The notes below the pieces were generated by a model. The model had not been told where the DNA came from. It saw only the letters and a program-made list of their open reading frames with translations, and ran no database searches. DNA of 64,000 nt, from assembly GCA_963817095.1 (NCBI GenBank), contig CAWFND010000002.1, forward strand, positions 34,841-98,840. Direction: 5' to 3'. The position numbers and the translations under genes were made by a program. Below, one piece after another: positions 47,144 through 54,482 of this stretch (positions within the stretch are counted from its first letter, which is position 1; each line of letters starts with the position of its first letter). Origin of the DNA: an uncultured Chloroflexia bacterium. Its GTDB lineage: Bacteria; Chloroflexota; Limnocylindria; Limnocylindrales; CSP1-4.

Positions 47144-48277
47144 ATGGACGCCGCCCGATCCAGCGACGAGACGCGGGCCGTACGCGACGTGCGGATCGAC
47201 GGGCTGCGCGCGGAGGCGTCCGAGGCGGTCGGCTACAGCGCCAACACGCTCCGCGCCGTCAGCCAGCGCTACCGGACCGCCTATGCCGCCGAGCTCGGCC
47301 GCTGGCAGGTCCTGCGCGACGAGCTGGACGCCGCCGAGCGCTCCGGCGCCGGCGGGCCGCGACACACGGGGGCCGGCGGCGACGGTGACGACCACTCCTC
47401 CGCGTCGGCCGACGCGGCCGCGTTCGCGGCGGAGGTCGGCGCCGAGGACGCCCGGGTCCGGGCGCTCCGGACGGAGGTCGAAGGACTCGGCCGCGAGCTC
47501 GGCCAGCAGCAGACGGGGCTTGCCAAACTGGAGATCGCGCTTCGCAACCTGGAGTCGACGTGGCTCTTCCTGGAGCGGGGTGACTCGAGCCTCGTCACCG
47601 ACAACGAGGGCCTGCCGACCGACATCCAGATGCGGATCGTCGAGGCCCAGGAGTCGGAGCGGTCCCGGCTCGCCCAGGAGGTCCACGACGGTCCGGCCCA
47701 GGTCCTGTCGAACGCGATCTTCCAGGTCGAGTACATCGAGCGCGTGATCGAGACGGACCTCCGGACTGCCACGACAGAGCTGCGCTTCCTGCGCGACCTG
47801 CTGCGCCGGGAGCTCGGGTCGGTCCGGACCTTCATCAGCCAGCTTCGACCGCCCGTCCTCGACGAGCTCGGGCTGGACGGCGCGATCGCCGATGCCATCG
47901 GGCGGGTGACCGCGCTGACGGGCCTCGCGATCAGCTCCGACCTCGCCGCGCCGGCCGAGCGATTGAGCCCGGCCCAGCAGACAGTGGTCCTGCGCGTCCT
48001 GCAGGAAGCGCTGCAGAATGTACGGAAGCACGGCGCGGCCTCGGCCGTCACGGTCGCCAGCGCGATCGACGGTGATGACTGGGTCCTGACCGTCCGCGAC
48101 GACGGCCGTGGCTTCGATGTCGGCGCGGTGGCTGCCCGCGGTCGGCGGAACTTCGGTCTGCAGTTCATGCGTGAGCGAGCCGAACTGATCGGCGCCCAGT
48201 TCGAGGTGCATTCGCGACCGGACGGTGGCACGCTGGTCCGGCTCGCGATCCCGGTGGGAGCAGAGGAGATCAGCTGA
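47144..48277 (+). CDS. Soluble HisKA_3-type sensor histidine kinase with a coiled-coil N-terminus (DegS-like)
   Basis: H-box ERSRLAQEVHDGPAQ, N-box VLQEALQNVRKHG, G1 VRDDGRGFD, G2 NFGLQFMRERA. No TM segment. GTG 47111 is an alternative start. Confidence 0.85.
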   Translation: MDAARSSDETRAVRDVRIDGLRAEASEAVGYSANTLRAVSQRYRTAYAAELGRWQVLRDELDAAERSGAGGPRHTGAGGDGDDHSSASADAAAFAAEVGAEDARVRALRTEVEGLGRELGQQQTGLAKLEIALRNLESTWLFLERGDSSLVTDNEGLPTDIQMRIVEAQESERSRLAQEVHDGPAQVLSNAIFQVEYIERVIETDLRTATTELRFLRDLLRRELGSVRTFISQLRPPVLDELGLDGAIADAIGRVTALTGLAISSDLAAPAERLSPAQQTVVLRVLQEALQNVRKHGAASAVTVASAIDGDDWVLTVRDDGRGFDVGAVAARGRRNFGLQFMRERAELIGAQFEVHSRPDGGTLVRLAIPVGAEEIS

Positions 48278-49014
48278 TGGGTTATTCGGGACCTGAACGT
48301 CGCCGCGGCGGACCTGACCGGCGCGGCGAGGGAGAGCGCACGAGGATCCTGATCGTCGACGACCATGCCCTGTTCCGCGTCGGCATCGCCAACATCCTCG
48401 AGCGCGAACCGGACTTCGAGGTCGTCGGCGAGGCCGACGACAGCCGCTCGGCGATCGACCGATCGCTGGAGACGTCGCCCGACATCATCCTGATGGACCT
48501 CTCGCTCCCGTCCCCGGGCGGCATCGAGACGACCTCGAGGATCAAGCGCGAGCTGCCGTCCACCGGGATCATCGTCCTCGCCGTCTCCGAGGACGAGGAC
48601 GCCCTGTTCGACGCGATCAAGGCGGGCGCAGCGGCGTTCATCCTGAAGGACGTCGGCCCGGACGACCTCGTCACGATCATCCGCCGGGTCGTCTCCGGCG
48701 AGTACCTGATCAACGACAAGGTCTTCTCGAAGCCGGCCGTCGCGTCGCGCGTTCTCAAGGAGTTCCGCGAGCTCGCGGTCTACGGCCAGGAGGCCGCCCC
48801 GATCTTCGCGCCGCTCTCGCCGCGCGAGGTCGAGATCCTCGACAACATCGCCCAGGGCATGACCAACAAGCAGGTCGCCTACGCCCTGTCGATCAGCGAG
48901 CAGACGGTCAAGAACCACATGAGCTCGATCCTCCGGAAGCTCTCCGTGAACGACCGGACCCAGGCCGTCGTGTACGCGATGCGCCAGGGCTGGATCCGGA
49001 TGCCGGAGGACTGA
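48277..49014 (+). CDS. NarL/LuxR-family response regulator
   Basis: REC domain (ILIVDDH, IILMDLSLP) plus a LuxR HTH (LSPREVEILDNIAQGMTNKQVAYALSISEQTVKNHM). The start overlaps the kinase stop (TGATG). Confidence 0.9.
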   Translation: MGYSGPERRRGGPDRRGEGERTRILIVDDHALFRVGIANILEREPDFEVVGEADDSRSAIDRSLETSPDIILMDLSLPSPGGIETTSRIKRELPSTGIIVLAVSEDEDALFDAIKAGAAAFILKDVGPDDLVTIIRRVVSGEYLINDKVFSKPAVASRVLKEFRELAVYGQEAAPIFAPLSPREVEILDNIAQGMTNKQVAYALSISEQTVKNHMSSILRKLSVNDRTQAVVYAMRQGWIRMPED

Positions 49015-49023
49015 TCGGCGCCC

Positions 49024-50270
49024 GTGTCCCCATCCAAGGCCGATCCGTCCGGCGCCACCGGAGCCGCCACCGCCGCTGATCTCGGTGCACGCCTCGAGCT
49101 GGAGATCCACGCCGTCGACGGCGAGCTCGCCGAGATCGACATGCTCGTCAACCAGGCGCGCACCGAGGCGACCCGTCACGAGCTGAAGCGGACCCAGACG
49201 GCCGACAAGCTGGCGGGCGGGGTGAGCCTCCCGCCGGAGGACCTCGTCGCCCTCAACGCCCAGCTGGTGACCCTGACCCGCCGCGCCTCCGTGATGGAGG
49301 CACAGGTCGACGTGCTCGAGGGGAAGCGCAAGACCCTGGCCCGGTTCCACGACGTCCTGGCCGAGCTGTCGGCCGTGTACGGCGGCGTCACGGCATCAGG
49401 AGAGGTGGGCGCGGGACACCGCGGCTCACGGCCGGCAACGGGCCGGCGGACGCCGGGGCGCCGATGAGCCGGATCGTCCTCAACGCCCAGGAGGACCTCC
49501 GCCGCGAGATCGCCCGGGCGATGCACGACGGCCCGGCCCAGAGCCTGACGAACATCGTCCTCCAGGCCCAGATCGTCGAACGCCTCCTCGGCCGGGATCC
49601 TGATGGCGCTCGCGGGGAGCTGCGCCTCCTCGTCCAGATGGTCCAGCAGACGCTCGAGGCCACGAAGACGTTCATCTTCGACGTCCGACCGATGGTCCTC
49701 GACGACCTCGGGCTCGTGCCGACGCTCCGTCGCGCGGCGCGCGAGCGTGGGCGGCGGGCCGGCGTTGCCGTGGAGTTCGATTCGATCGGGGCGGACCACC
49801 GGATCGACGCCGACCTGGAGAGCAGCCTGTTCCGGATCGTCGACGAGGCGCTCGCTGCCTATCTCGCGGCCAACCCGGACCGAGTCGCGGTCCGCCTCGA
49901 CTGGTCGGAGGGCTTGATCGAGGTGGAGGTGAGCGCCCACCGCGCCCCGACGCAGGCCATGGCGGATGCGGATCGCCTCGTGACCGAGACCGTCGAAGCG
50001 GCGGAGACGGCCGGCAAGGACCTCCCGCCGGCGCTCGAGACGATGCTCGAGGACCGCCGGAGCCAGGCCGAGTCCGCCGCCGTGGCGGCGCGGGATGCCG
50101 CCGTGGTGTCGCTGCCGGCGGCGACGTGGCGCGAGATCGAGCAACGAGCCGTCACGACCGGGATCGTGGCCGTGCAATCCGACGGTGGCGCGACGCTCCG
50201 GCTGCGCGTCGAGATCGGGGCCGCGGGAGGCGCGGGGGAGACCGCCGATGCGGTGGCCACGGTCGACTGA
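49024..50270 (+). pseudogene. Second HisKA_3 kinase paralog with a degenerate ATP-binding domain; one frame break
   Basis: The coiled-coil N-terminus is ORF 49024. The H-box part is ORF 49464 (REIARAMHDGPAQ). High GC3 moves into the second frame at ~49415 (..PRLTAGNGPADAGAPMSRIV). N-box Asn and the DxGxG box are absent (IVDEALAAYLAANPDR; VEVSAHRAPT). Confidence 0.65.
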
Positions 50271-50428
50271 GCCCGGAGCCGGGTCCGACGCTTGGGCAGG
50301 GCCTCATCGAGTACGGGCTGATCCTGTCGCTGTCGGCGCTCCTGGCGGTCGTCCTGCTGGTGTTCTTCGGCGGGACGCTGAGCGCGCTGCTCCAGGTCGT
50401 CGGCGACGCGATCGACGCCGCAAGCTGA
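50239..50428 (+). CDS. Divergent Flp/Fap-type pilin-like ORF; start unresolved
   Basis: ...GQGLIEYGLILSLSALLAVVLLVFFGGTLSALLQVVGDAIDAAS matches the G/xxxEY pilin signature plus a hydrophobic helix. No in-frame start lies nearby. ATG 50239 is in an adjacent frame, so a possible frame error lies at ~50285. Confidence 0.4.
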
Positions 50429-50565
50429 GGGCAGCCACGCACCGGACGGCCCCACCTCCGGCGGGCCCGGTTGGTACCAAATGGCTAGTGGAGTTCGACG
50501 AAACCCTTTGCCATGATGGCCGCGCCCTCAACCGGGGGTGAGTACTCATCCAGGAGGCTGCCTCA

Positions 50566-50736
50566 ATGGCGCTCGTTCACCAGTTCCTCGCCTCGCTTCG
50601 TCGGGACGAGGAGGGCCAGGGTCTCGCGGAGTACGCGCTGATCCTCGCACTCATCGCGATCGTGGCGATCATCGCCCTGATCTTCCTGGGCACCCAGGTC
50701 TCCACGATCCTGTCGAAGGTCGGCGCGTCGGTCTAG
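50566..50736 (+). CDS. flp: Flp-family type IVb pilin (copy 1)
   Basis: 56 aa: MALVHQFLASLRRDEEGQGLAEYALILALIAIVAIIALIFLGTQVSTILSKVGASV. An aggagg SD lies 8 nt upstream. The ORF is below the track's size cut-off. Confidence 0.9.
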   Translation: MALVHQFLASLRRDEEGQGLAEYALILALIAIVAIIALIFLGTQVSTILSKVGASV

Positions 50737-50757
50737 CCGACTCCCACCGAGACACCT

Positions 50758-50795
50758 GAACCGCCGGGGCCTTCGGGCTCCGGCGGTTCTCTTTG
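50758..50795 (+). terminator. GC-rich hairpin followed by a T-rich tail, after flp copy 1
   Basis: gaaccgccggggcc-ttcg-ggctccggcggttc (14-bp stem with 1 mismatch), then tctctttgt. Confidence 0.6.
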
Positions 50796-50890
50796 TGCTC
50801 CCGGGAGACACGGCGGACGTCGAACGACGCGAGCGTGGATGGTGCGGCGCGGCTCCGCCTAGTCGGCGCAACGCTCATTCATTCGTCTCA

Positions 50891-50920
50891 TTGACACCGC
50901 CGAGGGTTCGCCCGTACGGT
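50891..50920 (+). promoter_or_regulatory. Candidate promoter of flp copy 2 (TTGACA-N18-TACGGT)
   Basis: -35 ttgaca at 50891-50896 and -10 tacggt at 50915-50920. Sibling promoters occur before copies 3 and 4. Confidence 0.5.
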
Positions 50921-50976
50921 GGCGCCCGCCTTCGGCTCCGGCCGGGGAGCTCTCGAGGAAAGGAGGTATTGCCCAC

Positions 50977-51147
50977 ATGACGTTCTTCACCGCACTCATG
51001 TCGTCCCTTCGTCGGGACGAGGAAGGCCAGGGTCTCGCCGAGTACGCGCTGATCCTCGCCCTCATCGCGATCGTCGCGATCATCGCCCTCATCTTCCTTG
51101 GCACGCAGGTCAGCACGATCCTGTCGAAGGTCGGCGCCTCCGTCTAG
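50977..51147 (+). CDS. flp: Flp-family type IVb pilin (copy 2)
   Basis: MTFFTALMSSLRRDEEGQG then LAEYALILALIAIVAIIALIFLGTQVSTILSKVGASV. An aaggagg SD lies upstream. Confidence 0.9.
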   Translation: MTFFTALMSSLRRDEEGQGLAEYALILALIAIVAIIALIFLGTQVSTILSKVGASV

Positions 51148-51163
51148 CTTCGGACCAACGAAC

Positions 51164-51198
51164 AAGACCGCCGGGCCCTTCGGGGCGCCGGCGGTCTT
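51164..51198 (+). terminator. GC-rich hairpin after flp copy 2
   Basis: aagaccgccgggccc-ttcg-gggcgccggcggtctt, then cgtgatt. Confidence 0.55.
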
Positions 51199-51258
51199 CG
51201 TGATTCCGGCGCCCGAGAGGGCCGATGCGTGCTGTCATCGCTTTTGCGGCCGGCCTTC

Positions 51259-51288
51259 TTGACGAAACGGATCGGCCGCTCGTAAGGT
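51259..51288 (+). promoter_or_regulatory. Candidate promoter of flp copy 3 (TTGACG-N18-TAAGGT)
   Basis: -35 ttgacg at 51259-51264 and -10 taaggt at 51283-51288. Confidence 0.5.
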
Positions 51289-51342
51289 TCGCCGGCCCCC
51301 GGGGTTCATCGGGGAGTCTCGAGGAAAGGAGGTCCCACACAC

Positions 51343-51513
51343 ATGTCCGTTCTGAATGCACTTATCGCATCCTTCCGCCGGGATGAGGACGGCCAGGGTC
51401 TCGCCGAGTACGCGCTGATCCTCGCCCTCATCGCGATCGTGGCGATCATCGCCCTGATCTTCCTCGGCACCCAGGTCAGCACGATCCTGTCGAAGGTCGG
51501 CGCCTCCGTCTGA
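51343..51513 (+). CDS. flp: Flp-family type IVb pilin (copy 3)
   Basis: MSVLNALIASFRRDEDGQG followed by a mature part identical to copies 1-2. An aaggagg SD lies upstream. Confidence 0.9.
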   Translation: MSVLNALIASFRRDEDGQGLAEYALILALIAIVAIIALIFLGTQVSTILSKVGASV

Positions 51514-51525
51514 CGCAGCACCGAT

Positions 51526-51561
51526 GAACCGCCGGGCCGCATCGCGCGGTGCCGGCGGTTC
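51526..51561 (+). terminator. Imperfect GC-rich hairpin after flp copy 3
   Basis: gaaccgccgg...ccggcggttc outer arms with inner ccgc/gcgg pairing. Confidence 0.45.
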
Positions 51562-51625
51562 GTCGTCTCCGGCCCCTTGTGGCCTGGGCGGTGCGTCACC
51601 GCGCCGCCCTGTACCAAGGGACCTA

Positions 51626-51653
51626 TTGACAGGCACGTCACACGGCCTACCGT
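51626..51653 (+). promoter_or_regulatory. Candidate promoter of flp copy 4 (TTGACA-N16-TACCGT)
   Basis: -35 ttgaca at 51626-51631 and -10 taccgt at 51648-51653. Confidence 0.45.
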
Positions 51654-51729
51654 GCGTCGTGCCGGGGGCGCGCCTATCCCGACCTCCGGGAGCGCCCATT
51701 CGGGACGTTCGACGGAAGGAGGTGAATCA

Positions 51730-51921
51730 GTGTCCCAGTTCCGGCGGATCGCCGCCCGGTTGCGTCAGACATGGCGTGACGAAGACGGCCAGGGTCTGGC
51801 CGAATACGCACTCATCCTTGCGCTCATCGCGATCGTCGCCATCGTTGCCTTGATCTTCATGGGGCAGCAGGTGAGCAACAAGCTCAGTGTCATCGGAAGC
51901 ACGATCCAGTCCGTGCAATAA
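51730..51921 (+). CDS. flp: Flp-family type IVb pilin (copy 4, divergent mature region)
   Basis: GTG 51730 lies within ORF 51577..51921, with an aaggaggtg SD. Sequence: VSQFRRIAARLRQTWRDEDGQGLAEYALILALIAIVAIVALIFMGQQVSNKLSVIGSTIQSVQ. Confidence 0.85.
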   Translation: MSQFRRIAARLRQTWRDEDGQGLAEYALILALIAIVAIVALIFMGQQVSNKLSVIGSTIQSVQ

Positions 51922-51943
51922 CCAGCGGCACCGCACCACATTC

Positions 51944-51978
51944 GAACGGCCCGTCCGGGCTCTCCGGACGGGCCGTTC
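51944..51978 (+). terminator. Perfect 15-bp GC-rich hairpin after flp copy 4
   Basis: gaacggcccgtccgg-gctct-ccggacgggccgttc. No clear U-tract follows. Confidence 0.5.
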
Positions 51979-52090
51979 GGCGTCTCCGGAGGGTCGCGCG
52001 CAACGTCTCGCCGCGGCACCGACAAACATTGCGATTTGCCTTGCGTCGTGCGTGATTTCCTCCCGTTTCTTCCCTATGGTCCTAGCCCAT

Positions 52091-52099
52091 TGGTATAGT
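52091..52099 (+). promoter_or_regulatory. Candidate extended -10 promoter (TGgTATAGT) for the cpaB-tadC operon
   Basis: cattGGTATAGTcgc lies in the only locally AT-richer stretch (52020-52100), ~60 nt upstream of the cpaB start. Confidence 0.45.
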
Positions 52100-52160
52100 C
52101 GCGCGCCCCGAACCCGGTGCTACAGTGGTGCCACCTGTCACACGGCTCGGGAGACCTATC

Positions 52161-53069
52161 TTGAAGCGCTCGAATCGGCTTGTCCTGCTCGTCGGGGTGT
52201 TCCTGGCGGTCGTTGCGTTTGTCGGAATCGCGCTGTTGCTGAACAACGGCGGCTCGACGACCAACAACAACAACACCGCGGTCCCGACACAGCTTCCGAC
52301 TGTCATCGCGAAGCAGGACATCAACCTCGGGGTGACTGTCACCGCTGACATGCTCGATACGCAGACGATCGACGTGACCAACCGAAAGGCGACCGCGTAC
52401 GGTGATCCGAGCCAGGTCGTCGGGCAGGTCGCGCGCCGGCCGATCAAGGCCACCTCGCAGCTCGAGACGGCCGACTTCGACACGAGCGGCACCGGCGTGA
52501 CGACGATCACCGTTCCTCCGGGCATGCGAGCGATCTCCGCCCAGGTCGACCAGGTCTCCGGCGTCGGCACCGTGATCAACACGGGCGACTACGTCGACCT
52601 CCTCGTCGGCTTCACCGGTGACAAGTTCCCGGTCGTGACGGTGAACCCGCAGGACAACTCGATCAGCGTCGTCAGCGGCCTCAACGGGACGAGCGTGAAG
52701 CTCCTCCTCGAGGGCATGCAGGTCCTCGGCCGGCAGCTCCCGCCCCCGACCACGACCCAGGCCCAGCAGCCTGCCGAGAACGGACAGACGCCCAGCGGAC
52801 AGCCGACGACGTCGCTCAACGGCCAGCAGGAGATCGTCATCCTGGCGGTGACCCCGGCCCAGGCCGAGGTGATCAAGTTCGCCCAGCTGGACGGCTCGAT
52901 CAGCCTCGTCCTCCGCTCCTCGAAGGACTTCGTCGACGACCAGGGCAACCCGGTCGTGACCCCGCCGAGCGGCACGGACGGCATCACCCTCAAGAAGCTC
53001 ACCACGGACTTCGCGGTTCCGATCCCGGAGCTCGTCGAGGCCATCCTCCCCGCCCAGGCCAAGCGCTAG
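52161..53069 (+). CDS. cpaB: Flp pilus assembly protein CpaB/RcpC-like
   Basis: LKRSNRLVLLVGVFLAVVAF TM anchor, then SAF-like VIAKQDINLGVTVTADML and RcpC-like VPPGMRAISAQVD..GDYVDLLV. The TTG 52161 start fits the family better than the ORF-track start at 52125. Confidence 0.8.
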   Translation: MKRSNRLVLLVGVFLAVVAFVGIALLLNNGGSTTNNNNTAVPTQLPTVIAKQDINLGVTVTADMLDTQTIDVTNRKATAYGDPSQVVGQVARRPIKATSQLETADFDTSGTGVTTITVPPGMRAISAQVDQVSGVGTVINTGDYVDLLVGFTGDKFPVVTVNPQDNSISVVSGLNGTSVKLLLEGMQVLGRQLPPPTTTQAQQPAENGQTPSGQPTTSLNGQQEIVILAVTPAQAEVIKFAQLDGSISLVLRSSKDFVDDQGNPVVTPPSGTDGITLKKLTTDFAVPIPELVEAILPAQAKR

Positions 53070-53222: not shown

Positions 53223-54482
53223 ATGGCCGACCAGATCCGCGTCCTGATCGTGGACGACATCCCGGAGACCCGCGACCACCTGACGAAGCTTCTCGGGTTC
53301 GAGAGCGACATCGAGGTGGTCGGGTCCGCCGCCTCCGGCAGCGAGTCGCTGTCGATGGCCGGCGAGCTGCTCCCGGACGTCGTCCTCATGGACATCAACA
53401 TGCCCGACATGGACGGGATCGCCGCGACCGAGAAGCTCTCGTCGCAGGTGCCGAGCGCCTCGGTCGTGATGATGTCCGTCCAGGGCGAAGCCGACTACCT
53501 CCGCCGGTCGATGCTCGCGGGAGCCCGCGAGTTCCTCGTCAAGCCGTTCAGCAGCGACGAGCTGACCGCCTCGATCCGCCAGGTCTACACGCGCGAGCAG
53601 GACAAGCTCAGCCGGATGGCGATCGCGCCGGTCGCGGCCGGTTCGCCTCCGCGCGGCGCCGCCGGCGGCGGCGAGGACGGCCAGGAAGGCCAGGTCGTCG
53701 CGATCTTCAGCCCGAAGGGCGGGGTCGGCCGCACGACGGTCGCCGTCAACCTTGCGGTCGCCGCGGCGACGGAGCTCGGCAAGACGGTCGTGCTCGTCGA
53801 CGGGTCGTTCCAGTTCGGCGACGTCGGCGTGCTCCTGAACCTGAACCCGAAGAACAAGTCGATCGCGGACCTGGTGCCGGAGCTGGAAGCCGGCGAGCCC
53901 GAGTCGCTCGACACGTTCATCATCAATCACTCCGCCGGGATCCGGGTGCTCCTCGCCCCGCCGTCCCCGGAGATGGCCGAGCTGATCACGCCGTCCGGCG
54001 TCCGCCGGGTCCTGGAGGCGCTCCGCCGTCACCACGACCTGGTGATCGTCGACTGCACGTCGTGGTTCAACGAGACGACGCTCGCGATCCTCGATGCCTC
54101 GGACATCGTCCTGACGATGCTCAGCCTCGAGATCACGAGCATCAAGAACATGCGGTTGTTCCTGGAAGTCGCCGAGCAGCTCGGCTACGACCAGCAGAAG
54201 GTCAAGCTCGTCCTCAACCGGGCGGACTCCAGTCTCGGCATCCGCGTCTCCGACGTGGAGAGCTCGATCGGCCGGAAGGTCGATCACACCATCGTCAGCG
54301 ACGGGCGGTCCGTCGTGTACGCCCTCAACCGGGGAGTACCGTTCTTCCTGTCCAACCGGGAGGCGCAGGTCTCCCAGGACATCCTCCGTCTGGCCCAGTC
54401 GATCGCCGGGGAACGGGCCGCTGCCCCGAGCGACGAGGCACGCAAGACGGCCCAGAAGAAGTCGTTGTTCTCATTCCGATGA
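53223..54482 (+). CDS. cpaE: CpaE/TadZ-like ParA/MinD ATPase with an N-terminal response-regulator receiver domain
   Basis: REC domain (RVLIVDD, VVLMDINMPDMDG, LVKPF) plus a deviant Walker A (IFSPKGGVGRTTVAVNLA). Intact 419 aa. Confidence 0.85.
   Translation: MADQIRVLIVDDIPETRDHLTKLLGFESDIEVVGSAASGSESLSMAGELLPDVVLMDINMPDMDGIAATEKLSSQVPSASVVMMSVQGEADYLRRSMLAGAREFLVKPFSSDELTASIRQVYTREQDKLSRMAIAPVAAGSPPRGAAGGGEDGQEGQVVAIFSPKGGVGRTTVAVNLAVAAATELGKTVVLVDGSFQFGDVGVLLNLNPKNKSIADLVPELEAGEPESLDTFIINHSAGIRVLLAPPSPEMAELITPSGVRRVLEALRRHHDLVIVDCTSWFNETTLAILDASDIVLTMLSLEITSIKNMRLFLEVAEQLGYDQQKVKLVLNRADSSLGIRVSDVESSIGRKVDHTIVSDGRSVVYALNRGVPFFLSNREAQVSQDILRLAQSIAGERAAAPSDEARKTAQKKSLFSFR

Follow-up and report, generated by a model that had tools for sequence, protein, structure and literature searches.

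Why should a bacterial genome keep three neighbouring genes that encode one and the same mature pilin behind three different leader peptides? This question is raised by a 64-kb stretch of DNA (here called the window, whose numbering is used throughout) from a soil genome of the Limnocylindria (Chloroflexota), in which five Flp-family (type IVc, Tad) prepilin genes head a Tad pilus locus. The window genome is a metagenome-assembled genome (MAG) of 22 contigs with an estimated completeness of 59%, and the nearest named relatives of its TadA protein are found in soil MAGs labelled Chloroflexia, Candidatus Limnocylindria or Limnocylindrales. The answer that we consider likely is that the three genes (copies 1-3) are major-pilin genes arranged as separate units, that the identity of their mature parts is maintained by recombination together with purifying selection, and that their leaders and promoters are positional orthologs. 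The window genome is abbreviated WIN below, and other genomes of the same genus carry G-numbers (G015, G017, etc.).

The genes and signals of the array, as well as cpaB, lie on the + strand. The array consists of an upstream, divergent flp-like frame (flpU, 50294-50428), copy 1 (50566-50736), copy 2 (50977-51147), copy 3 (51343-51513) and a variant, copy 4 (51730-51921). Copies 1-3, seen in a listing of open reading frames (ORFs), encode 56 amino acids (aa) each, with the leaders MALVHQFLASLRRDEEG (A-type), MTFFTALMSSLRRDEEG and MSVLNALIASFRRDEDG (S-type) followed in every case by QGLAEYALILALIAIVAIIALIFLGTQVSTILSKVGASV. Their first 11 residues differ (MALVHQFLASL, MTFFTALMSSL and MSVLNALIASF), and from residue 12/13 on the proteins match, apart from a single E/D difference in the leader; the three leaders and one mature protein reported by a first-pass annotation of this DNA are thus seen. 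The leader type of copy 2 is restricted, among the arrays compared, to the window genome, G015 and G017. Copy 4 encodes a Z-type variant pilin of 63 aa with a GTG start, which has its N-terminal helix in common with copies 1-3 and a different, longer C-terminus (…FMGQQVSNKLSVIGSTIQSVQ); its orthologs group by position, without homogenisation with the major copies. The upstream frame reads G↓QGLIEYGLILSLSALLAVVLLVFFGGTLSALLQVVGDAIDAAS, where the arrow marks cleavage, so the first-pass statement that both variants have mature C-termini of their own also stands.

Several lines of evidence bear on the assignment to the Flp family. A Flp prepilin is expected to be short (about 50-80 aa) and to have the motif G↓XXXXEY and then a hydrophobic helix of about 20 residues. 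Motif and helix are present in copies 1-4 as DEEG↓QGLAEYALILALIAIVAIIALIFLG and in the upstream frame as G↓QGLIEYGLIL…. The Pfam family PF04964 (Flp_Fap) is matched by copy 1 with 28.6 bits (E 1.2e-6), by copy 4 with 26.7 bits (E 4.7e-6) and weakly by the upstream frame (E 0.12), while none of the pilin models of NCBIfam matched the flp genes. In the solved structure of Caulobacter PilA (PDB 8u1k_A), positions 4-39 align with residues 21-56 of the window pilin (E 2e-4, the match given by copy 1), and a second solved Tad pilin (8u2b_A) aligns over mature positions 4 to 39 with E 2e-3. The motif together with the PilA alignment places the cleavage after G17. The looser cleavage region given earlier is corrected accordingly, and the predicted mature pilin is the 39-residue QGLAEY…GASV that begins at Q18.

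The mature parts are identical as protein and not, as had been implied, as DNA. Pairwise, 6-10 of 114 nucleotides (nt) differ among copies 1-3, and none of these differences is non-synonymous. They include a serine codon that is TCC in copy 1 and AGC in the others. This codon (codon 46 of copy 1, 50650-50652) is AGC in the other eight genes of the WIN/G015/G017 trio; the TCC is a two-base change that kept the serine and arose after the split from these very close relatives. In G017, some copy pairs are only 2 nt apart. The nucleotide alignment that had been proposed for mapping a gene-conversion tract reveals no fresh tract in this genome; the tract was mapped by comparison across the genus. 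In the window genome, the immediate cause of the identical proteins is purifying selection and not a fresh conversion tract, and the persistence of the synonymous differences implies that homogenisation is episodic and incomplete.

Of 24 other genomes from the genus, 22 have the same array, made up of one divergent upstream flp gene, 2-4 major flp genes and one variant flp gene. Sixteen arrays were extracted, and 14 arrays from the genus entered the tests of concerted evolution. Leaders of the A-type (MAL[VI][HQ]…) invariably mark the first major copy and those of the S-type (MS[VI]L…) the last, while the mature parts are identical or nearly so inside a genome and differ between genomes at positions 26, 30, 34, 35, 37 and 39. 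In the leader (51 nt), A and S copies differ by a mean of 20.1 nt within a genome and 20.3 nt between genomes, compared with 6.9 nt (A-A) and 13.1 nt (S-S) for orthologs. In the mature part (120 nt), A and S copies of one genome differ by 7.9 nt, those of different genomes by 17.0 nt, and orthologs by 14.6 nt (A-A) and 18.0 nt (S-S).

This pattern was tested by swapping paralog partners between genomes in 20000 shuffles. Over all mature sites, 106 differences were observed against 223.7 +/- 19.3 after shuffling, and no shuffle was as low. For amino-acid differences the values are 0.029 observed and 0.116 shuffled. With synonymous codon differences only, the observed 0.145 lies below the shuffled 0.202 +/- 0.013, again with 0/20000 as low, and with near-duplicate genomes removed 15 of 20000 shuffles reach the observed synonymous value. 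The codon for mature Ser29 belongs to the same family (AGC or TCG) in both paralogs of a genome, with copy 1 of the window genome (TCC) as the sole exception; since AGC and TCG both encode serine, a family shared within a genome points to exchange of DNA and not to selection on the protein. Maximum-likelihood trees give opposite groupings for the two parts of the gene. The leader tree requires 1 change of class label, against 11.5 with shuffled labels, and does not group by genome, whereas the mature tree requires 21 changes of genome label (31.9 when shuffled, 0/300 as low) and does not group by class.

When the comparison is slid along the gene, homogenisation is seen from mature nt +39 to +113; the 38 nt before that are too conserved in all sequences to be informative for mapping, and 3' of the stop codon this comparison finds no excess of within-genome similarity. 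In the young clade of G012, G005 and G009 the A copies still cluster together, which again suggests that exchange is episodic. Variation in copy number and extra copies with a shared leader type indicate that unequal crossing-over or duplication also occurs. The concerted evolution of the structural part that was suggested in the first reading thus finds support at the amino-acid, synonymous-site and tree levels, and the sequences argue for recombination over mature nt +39 to +113 combined with purifying selection. G009 itself bears two nearly identical flp arrays on different contigs, L031 (G009:C14) and L032 (G009:C8), which could be a duplicated tad locus or could come from strain heterogeneity or contamination of the MAG.

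Selection differs along the pilin. Between genomes, mature codons 1-24 have a ratio of nonsynonymous to synonymous differences (pN/pS) of 0.12-0.14 and codons 25-39 one of 0.9-1.0, with 0.26-0.61 for the leaders, 0.19 for the Z-type downstream variant and 0.37 for the U-type upstream frame, whose mature part is kept in 15 genomes of the genus; both variant pilins are conserved in the genus. The two may be minor or alternative subunits, as the first-pass annotation suggested, although in the window the upstream one is without a canonical start codon. The C-terminal tail is exposed in Tad filaments, as is generally known for type IV pilins. The ratio near 1 implies that this tail of 15 residues evolves fast between species, yet it is uniform inside each genome. 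The synonymous component (pS) between orthologs is 0.18-0.25 for the mature part of the major pilins, about half of that for the S-type leader, the variant pilin and the upstream flp gene (0.42-0.53); codon bias of a highly expressed gene and exchange between species are possibilities.

Such an array would work as follows. An A24 prepilin peptidase would cut DEEG↓QGLAEY in each of the major-pilin products, so that copies 1-3 would all deliver one single-helix pilin of 39 residues. Homologous recombination among these neighbouring genes, by gene conversion or unequal crossing-over, homogenises mature nt +39 to +113, as the genus comparison shows; it would start in the hydrophobic-core DNA, which hardly varies, and would end where leaders and intergenic DNA are too diverged. 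Purifying selection would keep the subunits identical, as the absence of non-synonymous changes among the window differences suggests. Exchange limited to this segment, together with selection, would leave leaders and promoters as positional orthologs and would let the exposed tail change quickly between species and remain uniform within a genome. Each of copies 1-4 would have its own promoter, Shine-Dalgarno box, ORF and terminator hairpin; the same subunit would then be supplied from differently controlled promoters (TTGACR-N18-TANNGT for copies 2-3 and a distinct conserved upstream element for copy 1), and the array would raise pilin supply.

The elements on which this last step is based are as follows. 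The TTGAC(A/G)-N16-18-TA..GT elements described earlier before copies 2-4 are seen as TTGACA-N18-TACGGT at 50891-50920 (copy 2), TTGACG-N18-TAAGGT at 51259-51288 (copy 3) and TTGACA-N16-TACCGT at 51626-51653 (copy 4). The combined pattern TTGACR-N16-18-TANNGT, which was derived from these same three sites, occurs in the 64-kb window only there, with 0.04 occurrences expected. Upstream alignments across the genus show that S-type genes conserve TTGAC(A)-N18-(CG)TA..GT and the ribosome-binding box GGAAAGGAGGT and do not conserve the flanks; TTGAC…CGTA..GT is conserved in 17 S-type genes, and the copy-2 element has the architecture of this putative promoter. For the variant pilin, CTATTGACA-N16-TACC.T is conserved genus-wide, and CTATTGACA…TACC.T is conserved in 13 Z-type genes. 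Recognising these boxes requires a -10 of the form TANNGT and evidence of conservation. The 5' leader common to copies 2 and 3, GGGGAG(C)TCTCGAGGAAAGGAGGT, was likewise seen in the 5' untranslated region (UTR) at 50944-50967 (GGGGAGCTCTCGAGGAAAGGAGGT, with Shine-Dalgarno, copy 2) and, in the genus alignment, at 51311-51333 (GGGGAGTCTCGAGGAAAGGAGGT, copy 3).

Copy 1 lacks TTGACA. It is preceded by an 18-nt element, GGTACCAAATGGCTAGTG (50473-50490), with the 80% consensus GGTAC.AA..G.CTAGTG in 16 genomes; this conserved element, GGTACnAAnnGnCTAGTG, lies 21 nt 5' of a CATNNT box. The putative -10-like hexamer of copy 1 is CATGAT at 50512-50517 (conserved as cAT..T), and the conserved 5' UTR (50524-50557) comprises a GCCCTC..GGGGG hairpin, GAGTACTCATCCA and the Shine-Dalgarno sequence GGAGG. 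The centre of the 18-nt element lies about 42 nt before the inferred transcription start, and the element may therefore be an activator site. It is the sole zero-mismatch match in the genome, and a genome-wide regulon search with it gave no signal (8 one-mismatch matches versus 19 for the reversed control). A sigma-54 reading of the element was rejected, as its spacing is GG-N9-GC and not N10 and the GG is missing in G004 and G012. The 5' UTR folds are no more stable than shuffled sequences (z +0.3 to +0.9), and an Rfam search of 50000-52300 gave only sub-threshold small RNA (sRNA) matches and no riboswitch. One of these, to CC2171 (a Caulobacter 'sRNA'), covers copy 4 and its terminator (51706-51975) with 27.6 bits against a gathering threshold of 75 bits (E 0.002); the family CC2171 might itself hold a small pilin-like gene.

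A strong GC hairpin follows each of copies 1-4, as the first-pass annotation had it: at 50758-50789 (-32.5 kcal/mol, z -6.0, then TCTTTGTGCT), 51164-51198 (-34.6 kcal/mol, z -3.1), 51522-51565 (-38.1 kcal/mol, z -4.1) and 51943-51979 (-39.6 kcal/mol, with 16-bp perfect arms and a sequence conserved in the genus). For the four, z ranges from -3.1 to -6.0, and 0/200 shuffles were as stable. Across the genus, hairpins with z < -2 follow 33 of 39 major genes and 11 of 12 Z-type genes, with differing stem sequences, and TTTTTCGATTC tails come after them in several relatives. The upstream flp-like frame has no hairpin after it in the window, and one is present in 2 of 15 cases in the genus. These signals fit four separate pilin transcription units and a separate assembly operon. 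Independent regulation, as earlier proposed, is consistent with the genus-conserved boxes of copies 2-4, the distinct element of copy 1 and the hairpin at each gene, all of which are indirect evidence.

Several observations weigh against parts of this account. The matches of copies 1 and 4 to PF04964 do not reach the gathering cut-off of 32.2 bits. No recent tract of nucleotide identity is found among the window copies, whose 6-10 synonymous differences mean that homogenisation there is not recent. The shuffle tests ignore kinship among genomes, and the trees were built from short sequences (117 nt) with most forks unresolved. In G021 and G023 the paralogs encode identical proteins with 12-15 synonymous codon differences; these genomes and the window copies imply that selection for identical subunits carries much of the pattern. 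On the side of transcription, the case for separate units is built on conservation: the -10 hexamers agree with the E. coli consensus TATAAT at 3 of 6 positions, a generic promoter scan of 49900-52300 gave no sigma-70 sites, and a clear T-run follows only the copy-1 hairpin (TCTTTGTGCT), those of copies 2-4 having few T.

Some of these points are what one would expect if old duplicates were kept identical by purifying or co-evolutionary selection alone, without exchange of DNA, the same amino-acid changes arising in parallel in each copy since mixed subunits assemble poorly. Every difference among copies 1-3 is synonymous, G021 and G023 fit well, and the excess of within-genome similarity is about 4-fold for amino acids and only about 1.4-fold for synonymous sites. 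However, synonymous sites also co-vary within genomes (0/20000 shuffles), the AGC and TCG families are two mutations apart and yet common to the paralogs of each genome, and the nucleotide tree of the mature part groups by genome. Selection alone is thus already disfavoured, and we regard it, and the parallel changes it calls for, as improbable. About equally unlikely is birth and death, in which within-genome similarity would stem from whole genes duplicated recently and independently in the separate lineages, a scenario for which one can cite the major copy number of 2 to 4 across the genus, the extra copies with the same leader type (G002_2/G002_3, G018_3/G018_4 and G006_3/G006_4) and the resemblance of the copy-2 promoter and UTR to those of copy 3. 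The A- and S-type leaders with their own promoters and UTRs are, however, positional orthologs throughout the genus (the leader tree with its single class change), so that the outermost major copies (first and last) are older than the genus, and still it is by genome that their mature parts group. In a fragmented and incomplete MAG one might fear that the triplication was produced by the assembly, for instance by resolving a repeat wrongly, but this is very improbable: the copies differ in leader, promoter and terminator as well as at the synonymous sites. In addition, G015 and G017 have the same five-gene array with substitutions of their own, and about 20 others of the genus have 2-4 major copies.

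A different alternative concerns expression. The array might be transcribed as one polycistronic mRNA, with hairpins acting as attenuators or as stabilising or processing elements and TTGAC boxes that are not active promoters; the hairpins would then set the ratio of pilin to machinery. The lack of clear U-tracts at hairpins 2-4 and the weak -10 boxes are compatible with this, and in Haemophilus ducreyi flp1-flp2-flp3 lie in one flp-tad operon (PMC3201912). Yet conservation is found in the -35 and -10 hexamers, which keep a fixed distance from each other, and does not extend to the intergenic DNA around them. A promoter region that belongs to cpaB alone is almost unchanged in the genus, and separate units agree with the length of the intergenic spacers (230-250 nt) and with the Shine-Dalgarno box in each. 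We therefore hold both a single transcript and the ratio-setting role to be rather unlikely, and the reading as separate units is preferred.

The locus around the array has the genes expected for pilus assembly. Directly 3' of it lie cpaB/rcpC, a REC-tadZ gene (receiver plus ParA-like), tadA/cpaF (T2SSE) and tadB and tadC (two T2SSF). The first gene of this assembly operon, cpaB/rcpC (52161-53069), matches TIGR03177 with 111.5 bits, above the cut-off, and its start is probably TTG 52161 and not GTG 52125. On the 5' side are genes for a HisKA_3 kinase, a NarL/LuxR-type regulator (48277-49014), a coiled-coil protein and a HisKA_3-only protein. The Tad locus itself is without secretin, tadV, tadD, tadE, tadF and tadG; one Peptidase_A24 match above the cut-off is present in the genome, on contig 21 and outside the locus, and several TadE-like genes lie on other contigs. 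The TadZ/CpaE-like ATPase (53223-54482) bears an N-terminal receiver domain, and a kinase, the NarL-type regulator and a kinase-like protein without an ATPase domain adjoin the 5' side of the pilin array. The receiver domain and these upstream genes together suggest phosphorylation control over both pilin transcription and assembly.

The upstream frame and the cpaB region show further features. In the window, flpU (Gly codon 50294-50296, mature part 50297-50425, stop 50426-50428) has no in-frame ATG, GTG or TTG within 56 codons, and ATG 50248, the start used by its orthologs in G015 and G011, is +1 out of frame. Its leader region (50245-50296) differs from that of G015 by net indels of 11 nt, and its leader length varies widely across the genus (5-27 aa). 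CTG 50267 overlaps the TGA (50268-50270) of the preceding HisKA_3-only kinase-like ORF in a possible CTGA start-stop coupling; its use as the coupled start of flpU is speculation. Upstream of cpaB, about 130 nt (52030-52165) are almost invariant in the genus, …ACCTTGC.A.TCACCTT…AATGGTCCTAGCCC.TTGGTATAGTCGCGC…CGGTGCTACAGTG.TGCCACCTGTCACACG…, with conservation far above that of the neighbouring coding DNA, and this long leader may serve as an operator region or as a regulatory RNA. A probable extended -10 of the cpaB operon, TGGTATAGT (52091-52099), lies in this nearly invariant block. It is overlapped by CTAGCCCATTGGTA (52082-52095), an inverted, similar and genus-conserved copy of the copy-1 element, and this was the only notable second site in the genome-wide search with that element. 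One regulator could bind both, or their likeness could be chance.

Comparison with known systems places the array within a familiar family. Like flp1-flp2-flp3 of H. ducreyi and flp-1/flp-2 of Aggregatibacter actinomycetemcomitans, it consists of tandem small Flp prepilin genes directly 5' of Tad genes, with the same G↓XXXXEY processing motif. The H. ducreyi genes encode three differing Flp proteins (9.3, 8.9 and 9.9 kDa) in one 15-gene operon (PMC3201912), whereas copies 1-3 give an identical mature pilin, each has an apparent promoter and terminator of its own, and the assembly genes have a separate promoter and, unlike those of H. ducreyi, include no secretin, tadV, tadD, tadE, tadF or tadG in the locus. 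Bdellovibrio bacteriovorus also has multiple flp genes with different promoters: of flp1-flp4, flp1 and flp2 are FliA-dependent and flp3 and flp4 are not (PMC5430801). The Bdellovibrio pilins are distinct, not interchangeable and in part encoded away from the tad locus, unlike the differently promoted window genes, which encode the same mature protein. With Caulobacter crescentus PilA (8u1k), the window pilin has its mature form in common, one hydrophobic helix about 40-45 residues long. Caulobacter, a diderm with a CpaC secretin, has to our knowledge one pilA gene.

Concerted evolution by gene conversion is established in bacteria for Salmonella tufA/tufB and rRNA operons, and for pilins gene conversion is represented by Neisseria pilE/pilS. 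As in tufA/tufB and the rRNA operons, the exchange proposed here would be of RecA type, leaves paralogs closer within a genome than orthologs between genomes and is confined to a stretch of high identity, but its tract is only about 75-115 nt. Unlike in Neisseria, it homogenises expressed tandem copies and does not create antigenic variants from silent cassettes. In the literature searched, no paper on concerted evolution or gene conversion of Flp pilins was found, and nothing relevant on pili of Limnocylindria. When 80 diverse tadA loci were scanned crudely for the motif, 18 had at least two flp-like ORFs in the flank, with several near-identical pairs, including some from Anaerolineae and Bacillota.

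What the arrangement is for can be stated only tentatively. On one, doubtful, reading the array would allow the pilus surface to be altered while all subunits stay of one type, and would at the same time provide one subunit by two routes of supply. The tail, with its pN/pS of about 1, may be under diversifying pressure, for example from pilus-specific phages or changes of substrate, and conversion may carry a new tail variant into every major copy. Leaders and promoters specific to each position may be kept since their jobs differ: copy 1 may be activator-dependent through the 18-nt element at about -42, while copies 2-3 may provide a basal supply. The adjacent HisKA_3 kinase and NarL-type regulator could control the copy-1 promoter.

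Tandem flp genes heading tad loci are textbook knowledge and gene conversion between tandem paralogs is a classical mechanism; the comparative result has some documentary value, modest in extent, and reveals no new kind of system. For a very small bacterial gene, it provides a clean example, open to quantification, of concerted evolution limited to one segment, with opposite phylogenetic signals in the same genes on either side of the prepilin cleavage site. Because ORF callers miss flp genes of 56 codons, the annotation of Chloroflexota genomes probably lists too few Tad pilins. The array also suggests two testable ideas about pilus biology, namely that one subunit may be supplied from differently regulated promoters and that a fast-evolving tail may be kept uniform within the cell.

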